This document shows, piece after piece, positions 12,872-26,913 of a stretch of DNA of 64,000 nucleotides (within the stretch, counting starts at the first letter, position 1; each line of letters opens with the position of its first letter). This DNA is from Candidatus Bathyarchaeia archaeon (lineage in GTDB: Archaea; Thermoproteota; Bathyarchaeia; Bathyarchaeales; Bathycorpusculaceae): assembly GCA_049521795.1 (NCBI GenBank), contig JBEKOM010000001.1, forward strand, positions 160,001 to 224,000, read 5' to 3'. The notes beneath the pieces were generated by a model. That model had not been told where the DNA came from. It ran no database searches and worked only from the letters and a program-made list of their open reading frames with translations. Made by a program: the position numbers and the translations under genes.

Positions 12872-14377
12872 ATGGGAGACCAGCCGAAGATCGCATGTGG
12901 AGTATTTGCAGCTGTAAACTACGATAAGCGGCCAGTGTTTCAAAACATTTATTGGGGTTTACGGGCTGAAAACCACAGGGGACATCAGTCTCATGGTTTC
13001 CTCACGTATTTTGACGGAAAGTTCCACGTTCACAGAAGCCTCGACCTCGTGCCGAAGATTAGAACGAGCGCAATTCAAGAATGGTTTGGCCGGTTGCCTG
13101 GAAATGTCGGCATTGGAAACGTGAGGTACACAACGTCCGGAAGATGCGACGAGAAATCGCTCGTGGAAGGCACGCAACCAGTGACAGCTTCAAAACAAGG
13201 CCATGGGCTCGCGATTTCCTACAACGGCAACGTGGTCAACACGTTCGAGCTTCGGAAAGAGATATCCAAGGAGTTTCCACAGTTTACCAGTGAATGCGAC
13301 GCAGACCTAATCTGCTATAAACTGCTGATCGAAGTCTTGAGAGGAAAAGATCTAACGTCCGCCGTTGGGACATGCATGGAAGAAATCGACGGAGCCTTTT
13401 CTGTGGCGTGCATTGACCAAGACGGCAATCTCTTCGCCTTCAAGGACCCACATGGAATAAGACCGTTGTGCGCAGGCCACAGCGAAGACCATTCAACGTA
13501 TGCATTCTCGTCTGAAACCGTCAGTTTAGACATAAACGGTTTCGTAAGAGATTTCGAGCTGTTGCCAGGAGAGCTGGTCACGGTTTCAAACAAGGGGTTT
13601 CAAAGACAGAAGCTCATAAAAGGGAAAGTAAAGGCTTTCTGCGCCTTTGAATTCGCATACTTTGCAAGGCCAGACTCACGGTTTGACAGCAAGTACGTCT
13701 ATGAGATTCGTGAAGAATTTGGAAGAAACCTTGTGAGAGAGAATCCGAAGGTTGTCAAGGACGCGGACATAATTCTTTCCGTGCCTGAAACAGGGGACGA
13801 CTCGGCCCTCGGCGTTCACGAAGCTTCTGGGTTGAGATGGGAGAGGGCTTCACGAAGACACCGCTACGTAACCGAGAGGGCATTCATCCTGCTTAGCAAA
13901 GACCGAAGCCCAACGATAGAGAGGAAAATCAACATCCTCGGTCCCAGAATCGAAGGAAAACGCATCATAATAACCGAAGACAGCATCGTCAGAGGAGACA
14001 CGACAAGGGTCATAATTGACAAACTGCGCAGGATGGGCGCCGAGAAAGTGTACGTTTTCGTCACTTTTCCACGGATAATCGGACCATGTCTGTACGGAAT
14101 AGACATGGCAACATACGGCCAACTCATAGGCTCAAGACACAGCACGGAAGAAATCGCAAAGATCATAGGGGCAGACGGCGTGTGCTACCAGTCACTCGAA
14201 GGCCTGGTACAAGCAACAGGGTTCAAGCAAGACGAGTTGTGCACGGGATGCATAACAGGCAAATATCCAACACCGCTGGCCCAAGCAATAGCCGATGAGA
14301 TGAAGAAACGGTTCTCGCAGGGTTTTGAAGAGAGAGAAAGACTGTACGAAATGGAAGAAGCTGTTCCTAGAGCCTAG
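12872..14377 (+). CDS. purF: Amidophosphoribosyltransferase
   Basis: Short propeptide then N-terminal Cys (CGVF), HRG, GNVRYTTSG, DPHGIRPL, CAFEFAYFARPDS, EDSIVRG, CTGCITGKYP. Confidence 0.93.
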   Translation: MGDQPKIACGVFAAVNYDKRPVFQNIYWGLRAENHRGHQSHGFLTYFDGKFHVHRSLDLVPKIRTSAIQEWFGRLPGNVGIGNVRYTTSGRCDEKSLVEGTQPVTASKQGHGLAISYNGNVVNTFELRKEISKEFPQFTSECDADLICYKLLIEVLRGKDLTSAVGTCMEEIDGAFSVACIDQDGNLFAFKDPHGIRPLCAGHSEDHSTYAFSSETVSLDINGFVRDFELLPGELVTVSNKGFQRQKLIKGKVKAFCAFEFAYFARPDSRFDSKYVYEIREEFGRNLVRENPKVVKDADIILSVPETGDDSALGVHEASGLRWERASRRHRYVTERAFILLSKDRSPTIERKINILGPRIEGKRIIITEDSIVRGDTTRVIIDKLRRMGAEKVYVFVTFPRIIGPCLYGIDMATYGQLIGSRHSTEEIAKIIGADGVCYQSLEGLVQATGFKQDELCTGCITGKYPTPLAQAIADEMKKRFSQGFEERERLYEMEEAVPRA

Positions 14378-14406
14378 CGCAAGAACTGGTCTTCACGGTC
14401 AATCCG

Positions 14407-15834
14407 ATGGCAGACGGGTTACTCATGGAAAAAGTGGGCGTGCTTGTCGTTTCTTATGGGTCAAGAGAAGTAGCCATGGTGGACGCTTTTGCCCGCAGCC
14501 GAAACTACAAAGTGGAGATCTACATTGCTGATAAGCAACGCAACCCCTTCAACGCGAAGAGGGCAGCCAAACACGTTGTAATACCTGACTTGAATGTTGA
14601 AGAAATCTGCAAATTCGCAGAGAGGAACAAGCCTGGAATTGACTTCGGTATCGTGGGCACTGAAAAACCGATAATCGAGGGAATTCGGGATCTCGTGGAG
14701 AAACGAACAGGAATACCCATGATCTGTCCAACAAAGCGATGTGCTATCGAGGGAAGCAAGGTTCAACAACGGCTCCTCTTCAAAAGAGTCGCCCCCGAAG
14801 TCAACCCGCGCTTTAAGATATTCAACCCAAAAGAGTACAAAACCGTTGCAGAAGTCAAGAAAGACGTTTACGATTGGCTCGACAAACTGGCTGACCAAGC
14901 TGTAGTTAAACCGGACAAGCCAGCAGCCGGAAAAGGCGTCGGCGTCTGGGGCGACCACTTCTCGAACCGAGAACAACTGTTCGAACACTTCCTCTCAAAC
15001 TACCAACACGGTTCAGTGATAATAGAAGAAAAAATCGAAGGAGAGGAATCAAGCTTTCAGGCGTTCTGCGACGGAAAACATCTTCTACCTCTGCCGGACA
15101 CCAGAGACTACAAACGGGCGTTCGACGAGGATAAGGGGCCGAACACGGGAGGAATGGGTTCGTACAAGGGCGTCGGAGACGTGTTGCCGTTTCTATCTGA
15201 TGCTGATCGTGCCAAAGAGCTGAACGTCGTCAACACGATCTTTCAAGGATGGAAAGGAGAAGACAGTTCAGCCCTTCGAGGCGTCCCTTTCTACGTTGCC
15301 TTCATGCACACGCGCAGAAAACTGAAGATTCTTGAGAACAACAGTCGACCGGGAGACCCCGAGATGATCAACATAATGCCCGTCTTGAAAGATGATTTCC
15401 TTGATGTATGTTACAAAATGTTGGAAGGAAACCTGACAAGGCTCCAATTAGAAAAAGCCGCGACAGTGGTAACCTACAAGGCTCCACCTTCCTACGGCGG
15501 ATACGCAGAAACCTTCCCAAGCCTTGTCAAAACAGACAGCGTTGACAGACCAGTCGACCTGGCGAGAGCTTATGAATTGAGCAAGAAATATGGTGACGAT
15601 ATTCGAATCTACCCCGCATCGATGGAAAAACGTGAAGGCAAGACCTTCGCCCTCAAATCCAGAGCCGTGTGCGCCGTGGGCATCAGCGAAAGCATAGAAA
15701 AAGCTCGGCAGATCTCACTTGAAGGCTTGAAGGCAATACGGGGTGGATCCCTCTGGAATCGAACCGACGTAGCCTCAGAAAACCACATAGAGAAAAGCGT
15801 AAAGCACATGGAGAAGCTGAGGCACAAGCCGTGA
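14407..15834 (+). CDS. purD: Phosphoribosylamine--glycine ligase (GAR synthetase)
   Basis: GSREVAM, IEGSK, VVKPDKPAAGKGV, DYKRAFDEDKGPNTGGMGS, ENNSRPGDPE. Start may be 14425. Confidence 0.93.
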   Translation: MADGLLMEKVGVLVVSYGSREVAMVDAFARSRNYKVEIYIADKQRNPFNAKRAAKHVVIPDLNVEEICKFAERNKPGIDFGIVGTEKPIIEGIRDLVEKRTGIPMICPTKRCAIEGSKVQQRLLFKRVAPEVNPRFKIFNPKEYKTVAEVKKDVYDWLDKLADQAVVKPDKPAAGKGVGVWGDHFSNREQLFEHFLSNYQHGSVIIEEKIEGEESSFQAFCDGKHLLPLPDTRDYKRAFDEDKGPNTGGMGSYKGVGDVLPFLSDADRAKELNVVNTIFQGWKGEDSSALRGVPFYVAFMHTRRKLKILENNSRPGDPEMINIMPVLKDDFLDVCYKMLEGNLTRLQLEKAATVVTYKAPPSYGGYAETFPSLVKTDSVDRPVDLARAYELSKKYGDDIRIYPASMEKREGKTFALKSRAVCAVGISESIEKARQISLEGLKAIRGGSLWNRTDVASENHIEKSVKHMEKLRHKP

Positions 15835-16913
15835 AGAGGCTTTTCATCACAGACTGCGAAGGACCCATTTCGAAGAACGACAACGCTCTCGAAACGCTGT
15901 CACATTTTGTCCCACAAGGCGACAGACTCTTCACCGTCGTAAGCAGGTATGACGATGTCCTTTCAGACGTGTTGAGAAGACCAGGATACCACGCAGGCGA
16001 CACGTTGAAGCTTGTGCTACCCTTCCTGAAGGCATACGACGTTACCGACGAAGAGAGTAGACAGTTTTCTGCCAGAAGCCTCGTCTTGATCGCACTCGCA
16101 GGGGACTCGCTTCGACACATGAGAAGCATTGCACCGGCATACATCGTCAGCACAAGCTACGAACACTACATCAGGGCCTTATGCAAGGCTCTTGAGTTTC
16201 CGTTTGAGAAAACCTATTGCACTAAGCTCAGCTTGGACGCGTACACCGTAACCTCAGAGGAGAAAGACGGCCTAAGAAAATTCGGCTGTGAAATCGCGCA
16301 GTTACCCATGTTCGAGAGTCCAGCAGAAACGAAGAGTCTAAAAGACCTTCCAGAAGAGGCTCAGACAACAATTCGAAGGCTGGATGAGATTTTCTGGAAA
16401 ACCATTGCTAAAATGCCGATCGGAAAAATCTATTCTGAAGTCAACCCTGTTGGAGGCAGAGAAAAAGCTGAAGTAATAAAGGACATAACAGGCAAGGAAT
16501 GCGTGGCTTTAAAGGACACGATGTACGTGGGTGACAGCATAACTGACGAGGAAGCCTTCAAGCTTGTGAAGGAAAACGGCGGTCTGACTGTTTCATTCAA
16601 CGGGAACCAATACGCTGTCAGAAACGCTGAAATCGCACTGCTCTCCGAGGACAGTTTGACGACGGCGGTGATCGCTGACGTTTTCATCAAGTTCGGAAAA
16701 ACGGAAACACTAAAACTAGTGGCGAAATGGAATAGCAGAACGCTAGAGAACAGTTCAATGAACGAGGACTTGCGAGAACAATTTCTCAAACTGCATCCTC
16801 GAGAACTGCCCAAAGCCAGAATAGTAACGAGGGAAAACATGAAAGACCTAGCGAAGGAGAGTAGCGAGTTTAGAAAGAAGATCAGAGGAAAAGCCATCGG
16901 CAGGTTAGGATAG
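15831..16913 (+). CDS. HAD-superfamily phosphohydrolase, EhaR-like
   Basis: [15 protein letters not shown] (motif I variant DxEG), IVSTSYEHY (motif II), K, YVGDSITD (motif IV), [12 protein letters not shown] overlap with purD. Confidence 0.85.
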
Positions 16914-16915
16914 GT

Positions 16916-17830
16916 TTGATCAAGAAAGACTTGATTGAAGACACGTATGCCGAAGCCTTTTCAGGATTATACTGCCGCGTCTTAGTGACCGCGGATGACG
17001 AAGAGACAGTTAAGAAGGCTGCTGACGATGCGACCGCAACGCCTTCAGGTGTTATAGGTAGACTTGACAGCGGAGTCGAAAGACTGCTGGGGAAGAGTGA
17101 AACGCCCGATGCTCGAAGAGGAGCAATCTTGCAGTTCTGGAAGGGCCTGGACAGAGGAAAACCTCTGGAAGGCATGCTTGACCGTTTTGAAAAGGAGCTT
17201 TCCTACCGAATTCGTCAAGACATCTTGGTGAAGCCTTTCACAGCGGTCTTCGACGCTTTGTCCGTGGAGCCTGAGGGGAAAATGGACATGATGGAAAGGG
17301 TTGGCCACTGCGGAGACGGGTATGAGTGGGAAGAGCAACTGTACGGAAAGAAAGTGATCGTCGTCCCAATCATGGTGCCTGACTTTCTCATAGAGCGTTT
17401 CATCGGCTACGCGAGAGGAATCGCTGGCGGCAACTTCTGGTACATGTGCAAAACGAAAAAACAAGTAGTTCTCGCCGGAAAGAAGGCGCTGGCAGCCATA
17501 CATCAGGTTGAGGGCGTAACAACGCCATTCGACGTCTGCTCAGCCGGGTCGAAGACTGAAACGCGCTTTCCCCTGATAGGGCCCACCACAAATCATCCGT
17601 ACTGCCCCTCCCTGAAGAGGAAGTTAAAGACCGAGTCCAAAGTGCCAGAAGGCGTCAACTACATCCCAGAAATAGTGATCAACGGCATCTCCATTGACGC
17701 AGTTAGAAAAGCAATGAAGGCCGGCATAGAAGCGGTTTTGAGCGTTGATGGCGTGGTGAGGGTTTCTGCGGGAAACTACGGTGGAAAGCTGGGTGAACAC
17801 AAGATAAATTTGAAAGAGCTGTTTCGATGA
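16916..17830 (+). CDS. Formylmethanofuran--H4MPT formyltransferase paralogue (EhaS/Ftr-II-like)
   Basis: [66 protein letters not shown]. Lacks the canonical TSVIxCxxEAG segment (has [12 protein letters not shown]). Confidence 0.88.
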
Positions 17831-18756
17831 GCAGGCTCGATGCTATAGGATTCGGCGCCCTCAACGTTGACAAGCTGTTTAAAGTGAACAGAATAGCCGC
17901 TGCTGAAGAAGAGAGCTTTGTAGCCTCTCACTCAGAGACTTGCGGCGGCTCAGCGGCAAACACCATGGTGGCCTTGGCAAGACTTGGCTGCAAAGTAGGC
18001 TTCATCGGCAAGATTGCCAGCGACGCTGAAGGAAGAATGCTGCTTCAAGATTTTCGAAAAGAAGGCGTTGATACAAGAGGCGTAACGGTTGCGACGACGG
18101 GAAGAAGCGGCAAAGTAATGGGTTTCGTGGGCAAAAGGGGAGAACGCGCATTGTACATAGACCCGGGCGTGAACGACGCAATAAAACTCGCCGAAATAGA
18201 CACTGAATATGCGTCAAACACTAAATTCTTGCATTTATCATCCTTCGTTGGAAGACAGTCGTTCGAAACACAGAAAAAACTCGTTAAAAAGCTGCCTGAA
18301 AAAGTCAAGGTGAGCTTCGACCCTGGAGCACTGTACGCGAGAATCGGATTTGCGAAGCTGAAGCCCGTCTTAGACAGGACCTCTGTGATGATGCCTAACG
18401 CGGGTGAACTGGCCTTACTGACGGGCAAGAGTGACTACAAAGCGGGCGCACGATTGCTAATTGACGAAGGGGTTGAAGCCTTAGCTGTGAAGCTGGGAAG
18501 CAAAGGATGCTACGTCATGGACAAAGAAGAAAGCTGCCTAGTGGAACCCTTCAAAGTCGAGGTTGTTGACACGACTGGAGCTGGCGACGCGTTCGACGCT
18601 GGCTTCATCTACGGACTACTCTCCGGCAAGAACATCAATGAAGCCGGAAAAATAGGCAATTTCATCGCCTCAAGGTCTATCACCGCTATGGGCGCCAGAG
18701 CTGGCCTGCCAACACTTGACGACTTGAAGAAATCTCTTGGCACAAGTCGAAATTAG
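17827..18756 (+). CDS. PfkB/ribokinase-family kinase (EhaT-like, putative nucleoside kinase)
   Basis: [44 protein letters not shown] overlap with the Ftr-like gene. Confidence 0.92.
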
Positions 18757-19365: not shown

Positions 19366-20934
19366 TTATCCCTCTTCTTCAACAACACGAGCTTTCGGCT
19401 TTTTGCTGCCATTAGCCCGCGTCGATAGGTATACCGTGGTTATCAAGAATGCTGCCGTTATTGCCCCAAAGACGTACGTGAGGTTGTGAATGTTTTGCAC
19501 GCTTTGAGATTGATCCATCAAGCTGCTCTGTAAAGACGAGTTCAACGCCAGATAGCTGCTCTGCAGTTGGCTGAGGTTTTGCAGCAAGAGGTCAAAGCTG
19601 CTCAGCAGAGCCTTATACGTGGAGCTCATGTTGTCGATCTCAGCCTGCAGGCTCGCGTTATAGTTGCTCAAAAGAGCTTGGTATGTCGCGTTCAAGCTGT
19701 TAAAGTCTGTTTGAAGCTTAGTATACTCGCTAAGCAATTCGCTCTGCAACTGTAGTACTTCTGAAGAGATCACAGTAATGCTCTGATCCCCGTGCGGGTA
19801 GCTGAAGTACAAATAAGTAGTTGCGTTATCAGAAGCGCTCAACAAAGAGGTTGCAACCTCTCCTTCACGATCTACGACGATCAAGGGGTACTCCATCAGC
19901 GACACCGGAATCGTCATCCTACAGAAACCAGATGTACCGTCCTTCCCGACTGCACTGAAGCTGACCATCTTGTAGCCCGTTTCTCTGCCAACTTCAAACT
20001 TGAAATCAGGGATTGTGGAGTTGCTGATAACGGTTATCTGAAATTTCTCATAGTTGTACATTATGTCGTACTCGGAAAAAGTTCCCACCAAGGGATAGTT
20101 ATCCTGGTTATTCTCATCTATGGTATAGTTCTCGTCTCCAATCCCGTTTGTGCTCGGTCCTGTGAAATTGTAGTCAGCGAAGTAATTCCCTTCACCGTCA
20201 CGACTCCAAACATTTGTTGACGGACTATTTACTTGAATTGGGTTTGCGTCCAAAAAGTTGTTATGGTAAAAGAAGTTCCTGTTGCTGTCCGCAGAAAGAA
20301 AAACATCAACGACATTATCTGAAAACGTGTTACCAGAAAACAGGTTGCTGTAAAGGTAACCATTAAAGACGACTCCGATTGAGTTACTTGAAAGAATGTT
20401 ATTCGAAAACACGTTGCCGCTTGAACCAGAGATCATGATTCCATTGGAGTTATTGACGATAGCGTCGTTCGAAAAGGCGCCGTTGCTGGACAAGTCAAGA
20501 GTCAGGCCAGTGTTAGTGTTCGTGATCTCAGTGTCACTTATGACGACTCCAGTGCTTCGTGACACATGTATCCCGACGCCGGAATGGCCTAAGATGGTAT
20601 TGGTGATGGTCAAACTTTCAATGGTCACGTTTCCACTGCTTATTGAAATCGCGTAGTCGCCACCATTGCCATCAATAATCGTTGTCGTTCTGTTTTCTCC
20701 GACAATAGACAGACTCTTTTTGATTGTGAGATTTTCATGGTAGGTGCCGGTGGCCACCAAGATCGTGTCGCCTGAACTTGCATTGTCAATGGCTGCCTGG
20801 ATCGTTCCAGTGGTTGAAACGTGGATAACGCCCGGACTTGCATAAACATACACTCTACATCTAACAAAGGAAAACATGAAGAGCAAAAATAACCCAATTA
20901 GCACAATCGAAACGACTTTCTTCAAATCAATCAC
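19366..20934 (-). CDS. Secreted, membrane-anchored NosD/pectin-lyase-like beta-helix surface protein with coiled-coil stalk
   Basis: Signal peptide, TIQAAIDNASSGDTILVATGTYHE, Asn-rich beta-helix repeats, FYHNNF, GNYF..DNYPL, coiled coil, C-terminal TM. Confidence 0.85.
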   Translation of the reverse strand: MIDLKKVVSIVLIGLFLLFMFSFVRCRVYVYASPGVIHVSTTGTIQAAIDNASSGDTILVATGTYHENLTIKKSLSIVGENRTTTIIDGNGGDYAISISSGNVTIESLTITNTILGHSGVGIHVSRSTGVVISDTEITNTNTGLTLDLSSNGAFSNDAIVNNSNGIMISGSSGNVFSNNILSSNSIGVVFNGYLYSNLFSGNTFSDNVVDVFLSADSNRNFFYHNNFLDANPIQVNSPSTNVWSRDGEGNYFADYNFTGPSTNGIGDENYTIDENNQDNYPLVGTFSEYDIMYNYEKFQITVISNSTIPDFKFEVGRETGYKMVSFSAVGKDGTSGFCRMTIPVSLMEYPLIVVDREGEVATSLLSASDNATTYLYFSYPHGDQSITVISSEVLQLQSELLSEYTKLQTDFNSLNATYQALLSNYNASLQAEIDNMSSTYKALLSSFDLLLQNLSQLQSSYLALNSSLQSSLMDQSQSVQNIHNLTYVFGAITAAFLITTVYLSTRANGSKKPKARVVEEEG

Positions 20935-20985: not shown

Positions 20986-21687
20986 TCATCTACGAGCAAG
21001 CATTTCTCCCAGTATCAAGGAGCAAATGACAGATACACACAGACCGGAAACAAAAAGAACCGTATTGATGACAGGCTGTACGAGTGCCCACAAAACTGCA
21101 GAATAGGAGGCTATTACAAAGAACATTAGTGCGACAGCCCTGAAATATCCTCTTCTACCTCTCTCTTGCTGGACCGAAGCAGAGCGGAGTAGGTCTTGCA
21201 TCTGTCTTATCTGCTCGTCAGTCGCCAGGACAACAAGGTTCTTGTCACTGTCTTGAAACTTGAAGCTTGAAAGCGCGTATCTCTGGAGTTGCCAAGGATT
21301 TCTCTTTGGCAAGATTCTGACAATGTGACTCTTCTCCATCTTCTTCAGTATCGTCTGAATCTTACGGACAAACTGGAGGTCAACCGTCTTTTCTTCTCCA
21401 TACAACCTTCTTATCAGGTCTTTGACGTCCGGAAACGTCAATTCCAACTGGAAGGACGCGATTGCCTTGACAAGATTGAACTGATATTCACCTTCTCGCA
21501 AACGCAAATTGCCAGTAACGCAGTCTGCACTCGCGGTTTCTTTAAGAAATTTTATCTCACTTGGCAACAAACGGTGCTCAGACACTGTTTTCCCTGAATC
21601 AATAGTTTCAATTGACCTATATAATAAATACTTCGTGCAGGAAATGTGCGAATTCAACTCTTTCAACTCATCTGTCTCCATTTTCAA
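20986..21687 (-). CDS. Hypothetical winged-helix protein with two C-terminal TM helices
   Basis: PDVKDLIRRLY...VRKIQTILKKMEKSHIVRILP..WQLQRYAL resembles a wHTH; two hydrophobic segments at the C-terminus. Confidence 0.6.
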   Translation of the reverse strand: MKMETDELKELNSHISCTKYLLYRSIETIDSGKTVSEHRLLPSEIKFLKETASADCVTGNLRLREGEYQFNLVKAIASFQLELTFPDVKDLIRRLYGEEKTVDLQFVRKIQTILKKMEKSHIVRILPKRNPWQLQRYALSSFKFQDSDKNLVVLATDEQIRQMQDLLRSASVQQERGRRGYFRAVALMFFVIASYSAVLWALVQPVINTVLFVSGLCVSVICSLILGEMLARR

Positions 21688-21735: not shown

Positions 21736-22143
21736 ATGGGAGTGTTATATATGGAGAATTATGTCATTGACCGCAATTTGTCCTATTTACCTTTGCAAAA
21801 TAGATACCGTCTGTGCGGTTTCCCTCTGGGCAAGAAGTACAGAAGCCACTTCGAAATCATAGCTTTGATGGTTGAAGCTGTCAAGGATGGAGGACAGACG
21901 AGATTCTCCATAATGAAGCGCGCAGGCATCAACTGCGGCCAACTCAAGAGATTTCTTAGGTCTCTCATTGAGATGGGCTTCATCCAAGAATATGTGAAAG
22001 ATGGCAAGGTCGTGTTCAGAGCAAGTGAGAGAGGGCTTGGCTTTCTAAGGCAGTATTACGTGTTGCTGACCATGGTTTTGGCCGCTGAGAATGGAACTAG
22101 ACGGTCGACTATGGTGTATGAACCGCAACTGAGGCAGAGATGA
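21736..22143 (+). CDS. Small winged-helix regulator (HTH_45-like); true start may be downstream
   Basis: YRSHFEIIALMVEA...TRFSIMKRAGIN..QLKRFLRSLIEMGFI...FRASERG. Confidence 0.8.
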   Translation: MGVLYMENYVIDRNLSYLPLQNRYRLCGFPLGKKYRSHFEIIALMVEAVKDGGQTRFSIMKRAGINCGQLKRFLRSLIEMGFIQEYVKDGKVVFRASERGLGFLRQYYVLLTMVLAAENGTRRSTMVYEPQLRQR

Positions 22144-22327: not shown

Positions 22328-23404
22328 GTGACCCGAAAACTCACCTACTCCGACTCTGGAGTTGACAGAGACTTAAGAGCTGAGTCAAAAAAAGCGTTAC
22401 ACATATTGAAGCAGACTTACGAACATAGCCGATACGGTAAAGTTGTCGAGCTTCCATACGGAAACATTTTTCCATTTCACGACCGTTATCTGGACCTGAC
22501 TATTGAAGGAGTCGGGACAAAAGTGCTCATTGCCCAGCTAGCAGACAAATACGATACCATTGGAATTGACGGCGTGGCAATGGCAGTCAATGACGTCATA
22601 CGTTCTGGCGCGAGACCAATCGCAATCGCAGATAACATCCACGCACAGGTTTCCGACCCTTCTCTTGTCAAAGAATGGATGAGAGGCATTTCAAGAGCGG
22701 CAGCCGAGTCAGAATGCATCGTTCCCAGCGGCGAGATTGGCGACGTAGCCGATCTGATAAATGGTCTCCGGTCAGGCAAGGGGTTCGACATGATTTTCGC
22801 GGCAGTAGGTGAAGTCGCTAAAGAAGATGTGATTTCAGGAAGAAACATAGGCCCTGGGGACCCAATAATAGGCTTGAAGAGTTCAGGGCTTCACAGCAAC
22901 GGCATATCTCTCGCCAGAAAAGTTCTTTTCAGGCAATGGGGCGGGAAGTACGAGGCGGACGCTGTTCCTGACGGGTTTGAACAAGAGCTAGTCCGTGAAG
23001 TCTTGGAACCGACCAGAATATACGTCAAGCCATTTCTCAGACTGACAAAAAAACTTGAAGTCAAGGCTGCAGTGCACATCACTGGCGACGCATACCTCAA
23101 GTTTGGCCGCCTTGCAAAGCCTTCCCAAGCCATAGGCTTCGAATTTGACAACATCAAACAGCAGCCAATCTTCGACTTGGTCCAAAAAACCGCAAGCGAA
23201 CTGAAAAGCCCGATAACGGACAAGGAGATGTTCAAAACATTCAACATGGGGTGGGGATTCGCAGCCATAGTGGAAAAAGCCGAAGCAGACAAGGCCTTAG
23301 ACACTTTGAACAAAGCAGGAGTAGAATCAGAACAGATAGGCCACGTAACGAGCTCCAGAGGAATCAGAGTCCTGCACAAGGGTAAGAAAATCATTTTGGA
23401 TTAG
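22328..23404 (+). CDS. purM: Phosphoribosylformylglycinamidine cyclo-ligase (AIR synthetase)
   Basis: TYSDSGVD, EGVGTK, GIDGVAMAVND, SSGLHSNGISLARK, LEPTRIY, HITG, TFNMGWG. Confidence 0.95.
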   Translation: MTRKLTYSDSGVDRDLRAESKKALHILKQTYEHSRYGKVVELPYGNIFPFHDRYLDLTIEGVGTKVLIAQLADKYDTIGIDGVAMAVNDVIRSGARPIAIADNIHAQVSDPSLVKEWMRGISRAAAESECIVPSGEIGDVADLINGLRSGKGFDMIFAAVGEVAKEDVISGRNIGPGDPIIGLKSSGLHSNGISLARKVLFRQWGGKYEADAVPDGFEQELVREVLEPTRIYVKPFLRLTKKLEVKAAVHITGDAYLKFGRLAKPSQAIGFEFDNIKQQPIFDLVQKTASELKSPITDKEMFKTFNMGWGFAAIVEKAEADKALDTLNKAGVESEQIGHVTSSRGIRVLHKGKKIILD

Positions 23405-23461: not shown

Positions 23462-23713
23462 ATGAAATACTGCCTGAGAATCGAGGTGAGCTTGAAGCCT
23501 GGGCACAGCGACCCTGAAGGCGAGACGACCGCACAGTTATTGAAAGAGCTTGGCTATGAAATTGAAGCTGCAAATGTCAGCAAAGTCTACACCGTAACTC
23601 TTGAAGCTGGGTCAAAGAAGGAAGCTAAAACGAAAGCTGAAGAGATGTGCAAGAGGCTTCTGGCAAATCCAACGAAGGATAATTACTCGGTCAAAATTGA
23701 GGAAAAGCGATGA
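23462..23713 (+). CDS. purS: FGAM synthase subunit PurS
   Basis: LKPGHSDPEG...EMCKRLLANP. Confidence 0.95.
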   Translation: MKYCLRIEVSLKPGHSDPEGETTAQLLKELGYEIEAANVSKVYTVTLEAGSKKEAKTKAEEMCKRLLANPTKDNYSVKIEEKR

Positions 23714-26091
23714 CTGCAAGCCTCTACATCCGCAGAGAAACCCCTTTTCCCCTCTTTGAAATCAATCTTCACGACGCAACAAACGAGCAGCTTGTTGAGA
23801 TAAGCCGTGAACTCGGCATCGGCCTGAACCTGGAAGAAATGAATCTTGCCAAACAGTATTTCGCCAAAAAAAGAGGGAATCCGACTGATGTGGAACTTCA
23901 GACAATAGGCCAGACGTGGTCAGAGCACTGTTTCCACAAGACTTTCAAGGGTAAGATAAGATTCGGCGGGAAGGAAATCGACAGCCTGTTCAAAAAGTAC
24001 ATCGGCAAAGTTGTAGAGAAAATCAACCCATCCTGGTGCTTCTCTGTTTTTGAAGATAATGCTGGTATAGTCGATTTCGACAAGGGCTACGGAGTGGCAA
24101 TCAAGGTTGAAACGCACAATCACCCATCTGCGGTAGAGCCCTTCGGAGGGGCAGCAACCGGAACAGGCGGCGTCATCCGGGACATTCTAGGCGTTTGGGC
24201 GGACCCGATCGCGTGCACCGATGTTTTGGGATTTGGACCGCTGGATTTTGATTATGCGAAACTCCCAGCCGGGGTTAAACATCCGAAATACGTGTACATG
24301 GGCGTCGTCGCTGGCATAGGAAGCTACGGTAACAATATGGGAATTCCAACGGTCAACGGCGCCATATACTTCGATGAAAGCTACGTTGGGAATGTTGTGG
24401 TCTACTGCGGATGCATTGGGCTCCTTCCACTCAACAAGTTTAGGAAAGACGCAAAAGCGAATGAAGTCATCGTTTTGGCCGGCGGAAAAACTGGCCGGGA
24501 CGGCATACACGGCGTTACCTTCGCCTCTGCCGAACTGACGGAAAAATCAGAGGAGATTTCTCGCCCAGCAGTTCAGATAGCCAACCCGATCGAGGAGGAA
24601 AAGCTCAAGAGGGCAATAATCAAAATTCGAGACCTCGAGTTGGCATCCGCGATCACAGACTTAGGCGGTGGTGGTCTATCCTCTGCCGTGGGCGAAACCG
24701 CGAAAAAGTTTAACTGCGGCGCAGCGGTGGAGCTTGGAAAAGTTCCTCTGAAACATGTGGACCTAGCCCCATGGGAAATCTACGTCTCAGAATCTCAAGA
24801 AAGAATGCTCCTAACAACGCCGCCTGAAAACCTGGACCGTTTGTTAGCTGTCTTTGAAGATGAAGACGTTGAAGCCACGGCTATCGGAAAGCTGACCTCA
24901 AACAAGACACTGCGACTAAGTTTTCACGGCCTAGAAGTTGCAGAAATGGACATCGCATTCCTGTTTGAGCCCCCTAGAATGACTAAGACGGCAAAATACA
25001 GAGTAGCAGACTTGGAAGAGCCGGAAATTGCCACACGAGAAGACCTCGCAGAAACGGTTTTGCAGCTTCTTTCTTCGCCCAACATTGCGAGCAAAGAGAG
25101 TGTCGTGCGAACGTACGATCATGAAGTGAAAGGGAACACGGTGCTGAAGCCGTTGCAGGGCAGGAACGGCGGTCCCAACGACGCTGCCGTGTTGAAACCT
25201 TTGGATGAATGCTGGAAGGGTGTAGCAATCTCGTGCGGCATGAACCCTAACTACGGAAAAATAGACACTTACTGGATGGCTGCTTCTGTCATAGATGAAG
25301 CGGTGCGAAACAACGTGGCTGTGGGCGGAAGACGAATAGCCCTTCTTGACAACTTTACATGGGGCAATCCTGAACGGCCAGAGAGGCTTGGAAGCTTGGT
25401 CAGAGCGTGCGAGGCATGTTATGACTTCGCATTTGGATACGGCACGCCGTTCATCTCGGGGAAGGACAGCCTGTACAACGAGTCACCCTTGGGCCCAGTG
25501 ACTCCGACGCTGTTGATAACGGCGCTAGGCATAGTTCCTGATGTTCGTTCCGCAGTGTCTGTGGACGTCAAGGCCCCAGGCGATTTGATCTACATCGTTG
25601 GAGGAACCTTCAAAGAGCTCGGCGGTTCAGAATACTACAGAATGAACGGCGCTCTCGGAAGAACCGTGCCCAAAGTGCGGAGGAACCAGGCTAAGAAGAC
25701 CTTTGACGCAGTGACCGAGGCGATTGATTCTGGACTGGTCAGAGCATGTCACGACCTTTCTGAAGGAGGTTTAGCTGTCAGCGCAGCGGAATTGGCTTTT
25801 GCAGGTGGGTACGGGATCGTGCTGGATCTGAGGAAGGTTCCTTCGCAGAAGTTGAACCGTGACGATTTTCTGCTGTTCTCGGAGTCGAACAGTCGTTTCC
25901 TCGTAGAAGTCTCTGCAGAGGCGAAGGAACGCTTTGAGACCATAATGCGAGGCAGGGTTTTTGCAGAGATTGGCAGCGTTACAAAGTCTCCCAAACTGTG
26001 TATCACAGGGTTAGCGGGCGAGGTCGTCGTGGACGTTTTGCTCAACGATCTGGCGGCGAGTTGGAAGCGAACGCTCAGCAAGAGGGTTTAG
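23710..26091 (+). CDS. purL: FGAM synthase subunit PurL
   Basis: QTWSEHCFHK, KVETHNHPSAVEPFGGAATG, TGRDGIHG, SESQERM, FISGKDSLYN, HDLSEGG. Confidence 0.97.
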   Translation: MTASLYIRRETPFPLFEINLHDATNEQLVEISRELGIGLNLEEMNLAKQYFAKKRGNPTDVELQTIGQTWSEHCFHKTFKGKIRFGGKEIDSLFKKYIGKVVEKINPSWCFSVFEDNAGIVDFDKGYGVAIKVETHNHPSAVEPFGGAATGTGGVIRDILGVWADPIACTDVLGFGPLDFDYAKLPAGVKHPKYVYMGVVAGIGSYGNNMGIPTVNGAIYFDESYVGNVVVYCGCIGLLPLNKFRKDAKANEVIVLAGGKTGRDGIHGVTFASAELTEKSEEISRPAVQIANPIEEEKLKRAIIKIRDLELASAITDLGGGGLSSAVGETAKKFNCGAAVELGKVPLKHVDLAPWEIYVSESQERMLLTTPPENLDRLLAVFEDEDVEATAIGKLTSNKTLRLSFHGLEVAEMDIAFLFEPPRMTKTAKYRVADLEEPEIATREDLAETVLQLLSSPNIASKESVVRTYDHEVKGNTVLKPLQGRNGGPNDAAVLKPLDECWKGVAISCGMNPNYGKIDTYWMAASVIDEAVRNNVAVGGRRIALLDNFTWGNPERPERLGSLVRACEACYDFAFGYGTPFISGKDSLYNESPLGPVTPTLLITALGIVPDVRSAVSVDVKAPGDLIYIVGGTFKELGGSEYYRMNGALGRTVPKVRRNQAKKTFDAVTEAIDSGLVRACHDLSEGGLAVSAAELAFAGGYGIVLDLRKVPSQKLNRDDFLLFSESNSRFLVEVSAEAKERFETIMRGRVFAEIGSVTKSPKLCITGLAGEVVVDVLLNDLAASWKRTLSKRV

Positions 26092-26094
26092 GCT

Positions 26095-26913
26095 GTGAAG
26101 CGAGAAGAGATCAGGATCTGTGTCTCGCGAGTAGGCGGAACGAACTGTGATGCTGAGACGAAACGGGCGTTCGAGGCGCTGGGCGTTCAAGCTGAAGTTG
26201 TGCATGCGAACGAGATGGTGAAGCGGCGAAGCATGTTGGACTATGATGCGCTGGTTTTTCCAGGCGGTTTCGCTTACGGCGACTATGTTAGAGCTGGAGC
26301 CATATGGGCGAAGTGGATAATGTCCAAGTTGGGCAAAGAGTTAAAAGTCTTTGTGGACGAAAACCGTCCGATCCTCGGCATCTGCAACGGGTTTCAGGTG
26401 CTCGTTGAGGCAGGGTTGCTTCCGGCTTTTGAAGGAATCAGCCTATATCCTGAGGCAGCGTTGGCCACTAATCTTCCGCCGGGGTACAACTGCAGATGGG
26501 TCAGCGTTAAGCATGAGAGCAGAGGAAAGTGCGTGTTCACGTCAAAGATTCCCCGCGGAAAGGTACTCCGCGTACCAGTCGCGCACAGTGAGGGCAGGTT
26601 CATGTTTGCAAGAGAAAAAGAGAGGCAGTGCTTGGAGAGGCTTTACGAGAACGATCAGCTTGTCTTTCGCTACTGCAACAGCAGCGGCGAGTACGCAGAA
26701 GGTGCTTATCCGACAAACCCAAACGGCTCGTTTCATGACATAGTGGGCGTTTGCAACCCTGAGGGAACAGTGTTCGGCCTAATGCCGCATCCTGAAAGAG
26801 CCTTCTACTGGTGGCAGCAGCCAGACTGGACCAGACAGAAACAGACATCCGAGTACGGAGACGGAAAACTGATCTTCGAGAGCCTGATAAGCCATTTGGA
26901 AAGAAAAGGTTAA
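26095..26913 (+). CDS. purQ: FGAM synthase glutaminase subunit PurQ
   Basis: GTNCD, PGGFAYGDY, LGICNGFQ, AHSEG, NPNGS, MPHPER. Confidence 0.97.
   Translation: MKREEIRICVSRVGGTNCDAETKRAFEALGVQAEVVHANEMVKRRSMLDYDALVFPGGFAYGDYVRAGAIWAKWIMSKLGKELKVFVDENRPILGICNGFQVLVEAGLLPAFEGISLYPEAALATNLPPGYNCRWVSVKHESRGKCVFTSKIPRGKVLRVPVAHSEGRFMFAREKERQCLERLYENDQLVFRYCNSSGEYAEGAYPTNPNGSFHDIVGVCNPEGTVFGLMPHPERAFYWWQQPDWTRQKQTSEYGDGKLIFESLISHLERKG

Follow-up and report, generated by a model that had tools for sequence, protein, structure and literature searches.

We identified, in the purine operon of a Candidatus Bathyarchaeia archaeon, a three-gene cassette that probably supplies step 3 of de novo purine synthesis, the formylation of glycinamide ribonucleotide (GAR) to formylglycinamide ribonucleotide (FGAR). 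The cassette encodes an EhaR-like protein of the haloacid dehalogenase (HAD) fold, a paralogue (Ftr2) of the formylmethanofuran:tetrahydromethanopterin (H4MPT) formyltransferase, and a PfkB-family kinase. It lies in a stretch of 64,000 nucleotides (assembly GCA_049521795.1, contig JBEKOM010000001.1, G000:C1:160001-224000 in our numbering), which we call the window; the assembly comprises 2.44 Mb in 69 contigs and is 98.75% complete. On balance, and with the reservations given below, we favor the interpretation that an EhaR-like HAD protein, a formyltransferase, and a PfkB kinase constitute a third system for the step from GAR to FGAR beside PurN and PurT. The genes of the window were called from open reading frames (ORFs) together with Pfam and NCBIfam scans, the ORFs scanned covering approximately 11.4-41.8 kb. 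Those of the purine run, in window positions, are the following:

12872-14377, plus strand: purF, amidophosphoribosyltransferase, step 1 (TIGR01134, 311.9 bits; GATase_6/7 domains)
14407-15834, plus strand: purD, GAR synthetase, step 2 (GARS_N/A/C domains; TIGR00877, 244.6 bits, cut-off of 288 not reached)
15831-16913, plus strand: EhaR-like HAD-fold protein P0001, 360 residues, predicted phosphatase (homology to PDB 1Y8A)
16916-17830, plus strand: Ftr2, paralogue of formylmethanofuran:H4MPT formyltransferase (FTR and FTR_C domains)
17827-18756, plus strand: PfkB-family kinase P0296, EhaT-like (PfkB domain PF00294, 187.4 bits)
22328-23404, plus strand: purM, step 5 (TIGR00878, 253.6 bits, cut-off exceeded)
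23462-23713, plus strand: purS (PF02700, 75.9 bits)
23710-26091, plus strand: purL, formylglycinamidine ribonucleotide synthase II, step 4, which consumes FGAR (TIGR01736, 671.2 bits, cut-off exceeded)
26095-26913, plus strand: purQ (GATase_5, 222 bits)

The stop of purD and the start of ehaR overlap as GTGA, the HAD gene and the Ftr2 gene are separated by 2 nt (TAG-gt-TTG), and the Ftr2 and PfkB genes overlap as ATGA; purM, purS, purL, and purQ follow in that order 3.57 kb beyond pfkB. The genes that would ordinarily serve step 3 are missing from the genome. Whole-genome searches gave no match to PurN (TIGR00639; the control search matched 12 of 14 reference genomes), none to Formyl_trans_N (PF00551) even at E ≤ 0.1, and none to PurT or PurT/PurK-like ATP-grasp proteins (TIGR01142) at E ≤ 0.01, and PurH, FolD, and the formate-tetrahydrofolate ligase Fhs were absent in whole-genome family searches. 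Each of the negative whole-genome searches gave matches in named control genomes. PurF, PurD, PurL/S/Q, PurM, PurE, PurC, PurP, Mch, and the canonical formyltransferase, Ftr1, are present, purE, purC, and purP (the last of these on the minus strand) forming a cluster on another contig (G000:C7:23672-25971). As PurN/PF00551, PurT, PurH, FolD, and Fhs are absent while the genes just listed are present, the missing step 3 is a real gap. The H4MPT one-carbon (C1) pathway is present in the genome, and its purine pathway is folate-independent and lacks a recognizable enzyme for step 3 only (PurB and PurO were outside the check). A first-pass annotation of the window had described a tight purF-purD-HAD-Ftr-PfkB run with purM-purS-purL-purQ 3.6 kb further on, and ORFs, family scans, and gene junctions all bear this out; it had seen no hydrogenase genes in the window, and none turned up among the ORFs scanned; and it had reported neither purN nor purT, a statement that our hidden Markov model searches extend to the full genome.

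The arrangement recurs across the class. We compared 80 named Bathyarchaeia loci, the best 80 of a contig scan of GTDB species representatives. In 78 of them, PurD lay upstream of EhaR at a distance of at most 150 bp; of the remaining two, one is truncated by a contig end and one has a matched PurD stretch ending 187 bp upstream. Ftr2 was found within 150 bp downstream of EhaR in 73 loci and 1-2 kb downstream in four, and it was not in the locus in three; the three genomes without Ftr2 at ehaR carry ftr2-pfkB elsewhere, directly next to purQ. PfkB directly followed Ftr2 in 72 of the 80 loci, purF preceded purD-ehaR in 73 (the other seven being cut by contig starts), and purL, purQ, or purM lay within the locus in 69. 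All 80 trios are embedded in pur operons. We also fetched the regions of 24 more distant genomes of the class and found the same block wherever EhaR occurs, across diverse families. The purD-ehaR-ftr2-pfkB arrangement is not due to chance, and the block seems to be inherited as a unit.

Elsewhere the same protein families carry hydrogenase names. A word-indexed collection contained 3643 relatives of P0001, many of them named "energy-converting hydrogenase A subunit R" by JGI, and the EhaR name is also attached to an Atlas cluster from Methanobacteriota. In the literature, EhaS and EhaT of Methanothermobacter are annotated as Ftr and ribokinase and are cotranscribed with eha (Kaster 2011, PMC3087415). 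The first-pass annotation had equated the trio with the ehaR-ehaS-ehaT families, and a comparison of these names and annotations agrees with it: the tail of the Methanothermobacter operon contains the same families in the same order, R (HAD), S (Ftr), and T (kinase), but here Eha is lacking, and the trio is flanked by purD on one side and by purQ/purM on the other. If the three were true subunits of an energy-converting hydrogenase of the Eha type, or factors in its maturation, their cotranscription with ehaA-R in M. thermautotrophicus would be accounted for, and Kaster 2011 (PMC3087415) treats them as Eha subunits. We consider this highly improbable: the EhaA marker of the Eha hydrogenase (PF17367) is absent from the whole genome, the setting is a pur operon at every one of the 80 loci, and Archaeoglobus fulgidus has both AF1437, whose structure (PDB 1Y8A, "hypothetical protein AF1437") is matched by the P0001 family with an E value of 2.5e-70, and the two formyltransferase genes ftr-1 and ftr-2, whereas Eha and Ech are absent (Hocking 2014, PMC3949148).

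The distribution of the cassette mirrors that of the known step 3 enzymes. EhaR occurred in 34 genomes of a phylum-wide sample of 251, all of them of the window's class, and in none of 213 genomes of other classes. Within the class, we used a sample of 121 Bathyarchaeia genomes at least 85% complete, fixed for all five queries (EhaR alignment, 1e-10; PF00551, 1e-5; TIGR01142, 1e-20; TIGR00877, 1e-30; and PF01913). PurD was detected in 106 genomes. Forty-seven of these had the cassette only, without a PF00551 or PurT gene (in one of the 47, G267, the match to the PurT model is PurK by NCBIfam, 466 bits), and a further four had EhaR together with a PurN-like gene inside the cassette; 41 had a PurN-like (PF00551) gene only, 10 had PurT only (G249 with 463 bits, above the cut-off, and G022 with 257 bits, with PurT as the best match and a PurT_C domain), three had none of EhaR, PurN-like, and PurT, and a single genome, taken up below, had the cassette and a separate PurN-like gene. 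Among the 15 PurD-negative genomes, 11 lacked all three, including G040 of the window's own order, which retains Ftr1; three had EhaR on fragmentary contigs and one had a PF00551 match. In Bathyarchaeia, the cassette and the PurN-like and PurT genes complement one another, and the cassette is lost together with PurD. Several solutions coexist inside single families (f12: two cassette, six PurT, one PurN, and one with none; f57: three cassettes of the Ftr2 type and one of the PurN-like type), which indicates several switches and not one split.

Other genes follow the same division. Most cassette genomes had two Ftr matches, Ftr1 at ~170-200 bits and, beside EhaR, Ftr2 at ~140-158 bits, and genomes without the cassette mostly had Ftr1 alone. 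The PurD next to EhaR scored mostly ~220-280 bits on TIGR00877 compared with 300-505 bits in the PurN and PurT genomes of the class sample, and this division is seen even inside one family, f12. Judged by these scores, the cassette PurD is a distinct, divergent subtype that travels with the cassette. In G280, exceptionally, the PurD adjoining EhaR-Ftr2-PfkB is canonical (397 bits). Among genomes without the cassette, we noted in G324 (L105:6186-7806) a tandem pair of PurN-like genes after purF-purD, with scores of 81 and 151 bits on TIGR00639, and two tandem purF paralogues upstream of purD in the PurT-type genomes G022 and G249 (L102 and L104).

The four genomes with EhaR and a PurN-like gene in the cassette (G281, G285, G056, and G088) lack Ftr2 and encode a 280-residue PurN-like protein after purD. 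The gene order is purF-purD-purN-like-ehaR-pfkB-folD in G281 and G285, and G088 and G056 carry the block in two parts, with ehaR-pfkB-folD away from purF-purD-purN-like; in all four, the gene for FolD is directly 3' of pfkB. The PurN-like protein keeps the N-x-H and D motifs of PurN (NLHPA and LDEGPP), and of the NCBIfam models it matches PurN best, with a score of 74.5 bits that stays under the cut-off. As FolD stands beside pfkB where the formyltransferase is PurN-like and is missing from the window's genome, the exchange of the formyltransferase goes along with a change of the C1-carrier system and leaves EhaR and PfkB in place.

Fusion proteins extend this picture. An exhaustive search of representatives retrieved a 599-residue protein (P0171) in which EhaR is fused to a PurN-like N terminus (PF00551, 6.6e-12; TIGR00639, 2.4e-14) that is 46-53% identical to the 280-residue protein, and two proteins, P0193 (899 residues) and P0201 (961 residues), in which EhaR is fused to an N-terminal ATP-grasp domain. 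The only family matches of this domain were PurT models, over a short motif, and among PurT, PurK, PurD, and PurP it is closest to PurT, with ~25% identity over 200 residues. The EhaR-like domain of the ATP-grasp fusion appears catalytically intact, judging by its motifs. In PurT, the GAR phosphate is bound by Lys355, Arg362, and Arg363 (PMC2978367); the likely GAR-phosphate site of the fused ATP-grasp, aligned by eye, reads RR in P0193 and GR in P0201. The sole genomic context obtained for an ATP-grasp–EhaR fusion is a metagenome contig (L093:10001-12895). Longer fused forms of EhaR were not seen in a word-index search, which is insensitive at 35% identity. By sequence classification, then, the same HAD protein is associated with three unrelated formyl-transfer chemistries. 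It follows that the formyltransferase can be exchanged and that the constant core consists of EhaR and PfkB, not of the Ftr paralogue. The exchange of the formyltransferase and the constancy of the phosphatase and kinase pair are new relative to the first-pass annotation. That annotation had proposed that EhaR, EhaS, and EhaT are a purine module and not hydrogenase subunits, and had expected them to anticorrelate with PurN and PurT across archaea, with a count of their pur-gene neighborhoods as a further check. The anticorrelation and the neighborhoods are confirmed within Bathyarchaeia (121 genomes and 80 loci), and the proposed purine role gains support from the complementarity, the joint loss with PurD, and the replacement of Ftr2; what has to be revised is the core of the module, which is HAD protein and kinase instead of Ftr.

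Catalytic motifs are conserved in the proteins of the cassette. P0001 matched no Pfam family at E ≤ 0.001, and its NCBIfam HAD-IB and HAD-IIB matches were weak and under the cut-offs; the HAD fold is supported by the homology to 1Y8A. The HAD motifs D8-C-E10-G-P, S107-T-S, K212, and G-D235-S-I-T-D239 are invariant across 20 close relatives, and among 63 diverse EhaR-like representatives, D8 is found in 52, E10 in 56, K212 in 61, D235 in 52, and D239 in all 63. The family also has a conserved C-terminal tail, F-R-K-x-V-R-G..G-x-L-G (S344..R348..R352-G..G-x-L-G). A subfamily without the nucleophile (P0194, P0231, P0232, P0235, P0244, P0249, P0250, P0252, P0256, P0270, and P0167; the cluster name of P0249 is Methanomethylophilaceae) has also lost the first Asp of motif IV and, in most members, the C-terminal tail; these proteins look like pseudo-enzymes or proteins with another function. 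The protein-language-model neighbors of EhaR include clusters with mainly bacterial labels (Thermodesulfobacteriota, 0.97; Spirochaetota, 0.90) and also Thermoplasmatota, a lead to the module or its HAD component outside H4MPT-using archaea. A predicted complex of Ftr2 and EhaR had a score of 0.00 and a mark of 0.32 and speaks to binding in neither direction.

Ftr2 matched both formyltransferase domains above the gathering score (PF01913, 145.7 bits; PF02741, 194.9 bits) and the subfamily model NF002554 with 348 bits (cut-off of 297 exceeded). On the equivalog model TIGR03119, it scored 245.5 bits, under the cut-off of 292.6 that the canonical Ftr1 on contig C5 exceeds with 382.6 bits. Its identity is 38% to the Ftr1 of the same genome and ~40% to the solved Ftr structures 1M5S, 1M5H, and 1FTR. 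The Glu of its EIVING motif (E252) does not vary among 26 Ftr2 sequences and lines up with YEIVING of 1M5S and 1M5H; an oxyanion-stabilizing active-site Glu has been described for FhcD and Ftr (PMC6926001), and E252 presumably corresponds to it, as far as the alignment maps the residues. Biochemical characterization has been confined to Ftr1 versions (Chadwick 2022, PMC9012536). We noted a third Ftr-like copy (~128-137 bits on PF01913) beside Ftr1 and Ftr2 in family f55 (G312, G316, G318, G320, and G344), and a copy in this score range beside Ftr1 in the f64 genomes G324, G334, and G347, which are without EhaR.

The kinase is, by its domain matches, a member of the PfkB family; ribokinase is its best family (TIGR02152, 171.1 bits), with the score under the equivalog cut-off of 299.65. 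It retains the motifs N-x-D and DTTGAGD, which we take to be the functional motifs of PfkB proteins. Its orthologues (at least 45% identity, 286-446 bits) are confined to the EhaR-positive genomes of the class sample and adjoin the module at every locus read, whereas EhaR-negative genomes have PfkB paralogues that are at most 27-36% identical, or none at 1e-30. This restriction to genomes with EhaR argues that the kinase is not a housekeeping ribokinase.

The nearest families of the kinase and the HAD protein do leave room for another interpretation, namely that the trio has some other function, such as ribose or nucleoside salvage to phosphoribosyl pyrophosphate, supply of serine, glycine, or C1 units, or H4MPT or methanofuran metabolism, and is merely coregulated with pur genes while a different enzyme performs step 3. 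Besides the ribokinase match, this would suit the closest solved relatives of EhaR beyond AF1437, which are phosphoserine phosphatases (E ~1e-7), the place of the Methanothermobacter trio in a hydrogenase operon and not in a pur operon, and the fusion locus L093, where pur genes are absent. We think it improbable, as it leaves unexplained the complementarity with PurN and PurT and the loss with PurD, the PurN-like protein that occupies the formyltransferase slot with FolD nearby, the fusions of EhaR to PurN-like and PurT-like domains, and the absence of the PfkB orthologue from relatives of the PurN and PurT types; it also comes with no alternative candidate for step 3, PurP being encoded on a single ORF. 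A more specific version, in which EhaR is a phosphoserine phosphatase for serine and glycine supply, was dropped as the main interpretation on account of the fusions and of the formyltransferase being displaced.

How a phosphatase and a kinase could contribute to a formylation is less clear, and here our proposal, a dephosphorylation shunt, is tentative and falls somewhat short of an even chance. EhaR would take the 5'-phosphate off GAR to give glycinamide riboside, Ftr2 or the PurN-like enzyme would formylate the riboside, and PfkB would rephosphorylate formylglycinamide riboside to FGAR, which would then be used by canonical PurL/S/Q. In this genome, Ftr2 would be the formyltransferase and the formyl group would most likely come from the H4MPT/methanofuran C1 pool, with N5-formyl-H4MPT as the favored donor and the primary amine of glycinamide in the place of the methanofuran amine. 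As EhaR and PfkB are indifferent to the type of donor, they are expected to act on the acceptor side and not on the donor side. The shunt is the simplest scheme in which neither an active HAD phosphatase nor a ribofuranosyl-type kinase would be dispensable, and we infer each of its reactions. A small observation fits it: the cassette PurN-like proteins have SGRD[A/R][A/D] in place of the canonical N-terminal SGxGSN loop, a loop that the PurN-like proteins of relatives without EhaR retain, as does the separate one of G344. We take SGxGSN to be the loop that binds the 5'-phosphate of GAR in Escherichia coli PurN. We also considered that the shunt might have a thermodynamic basis, ATP being spent to drive the transfer from the weak donor formyl-H4MPT; this is weakened by the persistence of EhaR and PfkB alongside FolD and the PurN-like protein.

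The simplest chemistry would be different: Ftr2 or the PurN-like enzyme could formylate GAR directly, with EhaR and PfkB as accessory proteins (a scaffold or channeling partner for PurD and the formyltransferase, a regulatory substrate cycle, or the repair or salvage of intermediates that have lost their phosphate) or acting in the reversed order, with the kinase attaching a transient extra phosphate for EhaR to take off. Transfer from formyl-H4MPT to a primary amine, that of methylofuran, is near equilibrium at +4.4 kJ/mol (PMC6926001) and could be pulled by PurL, which uses ATP. A structural partner would suit the overlap that couples purD and ehaR in translation, the cassette subtype of PurD, and the fusions of EhaR with formyltransferases. 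Some EhaR-like proteins are also without the nucleophile. Even so, all four HAD motifs are kept in the main EhaR family, the kinase has its catalytic motif and is strictly module-specific, and the PurN-like partners have an altered SGxGSN loop, if its presumed role is correct; EhaR and PfkB are also kept even with a PurN-like protein and FolD, while related families use PurN-like proteins without them. We therefore regard direct formylation as unlikely.

The literature places the same gap in other archaea. No purN or purT was found in two Archaeoglobi, four Methanobacteriales (printed "Methanomicrobiales"), and M. kandleri (Brown 2011, PMC3261824), in agreement with the first-pass annotation, which had noted that several H4MPT-using archaea are reported to lack a recognizable GAR transformylase. 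The same paper describes M. thermautotrophicus as a purine prototroph, and since it is one without purN or purT, an unrecognized enzyme must exist. The Ftr2 clade comprises ANME-1, -2a, and -2b (anaerobic methanotrophic archaea), Archaeoglobales, M. kandleri, and M. marburgensis (Chadwick 2022, PMC9012536); a separate section of that paper, not tied to Ftr2 in the passages available, reports that ANME-1 has neither PurN nor PurT. The Ftr2 taxa Archaeoglobales, M. kandleri, Methanothermobacter, and ANME-1 are, according to these sources, taxa reported without PurN and PurT. We found no paper tying EhaR/S/T or Ftr2 to purine synthesis among open-access papers and bioRxiv preprints, supplements excluded, and the available text of Borrel 2014 (PMC4153887), which has its purine details in a supplement, contains nothing on step 3. 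It is conceivable, though we would lean against it at present, that the shunt operates in many archaea with a formyltransferase matched to the C1 carrier and that EhaR/S/T of methanogens are this module. The variants would be Ftr2 with formyl-H4MPT, a PurN-like protein with formyl-folate (with the adjacent FolD), and a fused ATP-grasp with formate. Eha is described as replacing C1 intermediates withdrawn for biosynthesis, which provides a rationale for a purine module cotranscribed with eha: each formyl group leaving the Wolfe cycle would need to be replenished by Eha.

A number of points weigh against the cassette as the step 3 system or against the shunt as its mechanism. G344 carries the cassette and a separate PurN-like gene of 108 bits (1 of the 106 PurD-positive genomes; the assembly has 370 contigs and 4% contamination), and family f51 has a PurD of the cassette type, 63% identical to that of the window, and yet no EhaR; it has a stand-alone PurN-like gene of 315 residues. 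Among the 10 PurT calls, G022 and G249 alone were checked against PurK models. The class-level statistics come from related, nonindependent genomes, and the complementarity was measured in one class, the Euryarchaeota being covered through papers. The HAD nucleophile is lost in 11 of the 63 EhaR-like representatives, Methanomethylophilaceae included, so phosphatase activity is not universal in the EhaR-like family. The locus L093 of the ATP-grasp fusion is without pur genes, its neighbors being a restriction-modification methylase, a UvrD-like helicase, a SIR2 protein, and AcnX. The shunt costs one ATP and seems unnecessary with N10-formyl-folate as donor, and to our knowledge, a cycle of dephosphorylation and rephosphorylation is without precedent in purine synthesis. 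On the side of the literature, N10-formyl-H4MPT is not believed to be a formyl donor and the labeling data of Methanobacteriales are inconsistent, C8 coming from C2 of acetate in M. stadtmanae (Brown 2011, PMC3261824), and ANME-2a and -2b have both Ftr2 and PurN (Chadwick 2022, PMC9012536).

Three further genes occupy the interval between pfkB and purM in the window:

19366-20934, minus strand: NosD-like beta-helix protein
20986-21687, minus strand: 233-residue ORF with no family match
21736-22143, plus strand: small winged-helix protein

This insertion and the inverted orientation of purMSLQ are common only to the closest relatives (L013 and L014), and in most related loci, purQ is convergent with pfkB and abuts it.

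Set beside the known enzymes, the proposed system shares features with each. With PurN (EC 2.1.2.2), it has in common the proposed net reaction, the transfer of a formyl group from a pterin carrier to GAR, and its place in pathway and operon, and the Ftr2 slot of four relatives holds a PurN-like protein that has the N-x-H and D motifs; it differs in that the FTR/FTR_C fold of Ftr2 is unrelated and in that the HAD protein and PfkB appear obligatory here and are not needed by canonical PurN. Like PurT, the cassette is folate-independent in this genome and would, if the shunt is right, consume one ATP net for each formyl group transferred. P0193 and P0201 join EhaR to a remote PurT-like ATP-grasp; no such ATP-grasp exists in this genome, and the donor of PurT is formate where a carrier-borne formyl group is proposed for the cassette. 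Ftr2 shares both Pfam domains and the Glu of EIVING with Ftr and FhcD but scores under the equivalog cut-off, is always linked to pur genes and not to C1 genes, and occurs only where the cassette is. There are precedents for the two unusual elements. Archaea have replaced folate-dependent purine steps with the unrelated enzymes PurP and PurO, of which PurP is found in this genome, and in the synthesis of flavin mononucleotide by way of riboflavin, a HAD phosphatase removes a phosphate that a kinase restores.

For Archaeoglobi, Methanobacteriales, Methanopyrus, and ANME-1, the gene for the GAR formyltransferase has been listed explicitly as missing from 2011 at the latest (Brown 2011), and the gap was pointed out again in 2022 (Chadwick 2022); the appendages EhaR/S/T have lacked an explanation ever since the Eha operon was described. 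The cassette would add a nonhomologous third system to a known pathway step, possibly with new intermediates, and a swappable formyltransferase beside a constant phosphatase and kinase may point to a new kind of intermediate. If our interpretation is true, de novo purine synthesis in archaea would have its last gap filled, the C1 pool of the H4MPT Wood–Ljungdahl pathway would be tied directly to nucleotide synthesis, and the cotranscription of the module with an anaplerotic hydrogenase would be explained. The annotations "energy-converting hydrogenase A subunit R," "Ftr," and "ribokinase" would be corrected for thousands of genes, and metabolic models of methanogens and Bathyarchaeia would improve.

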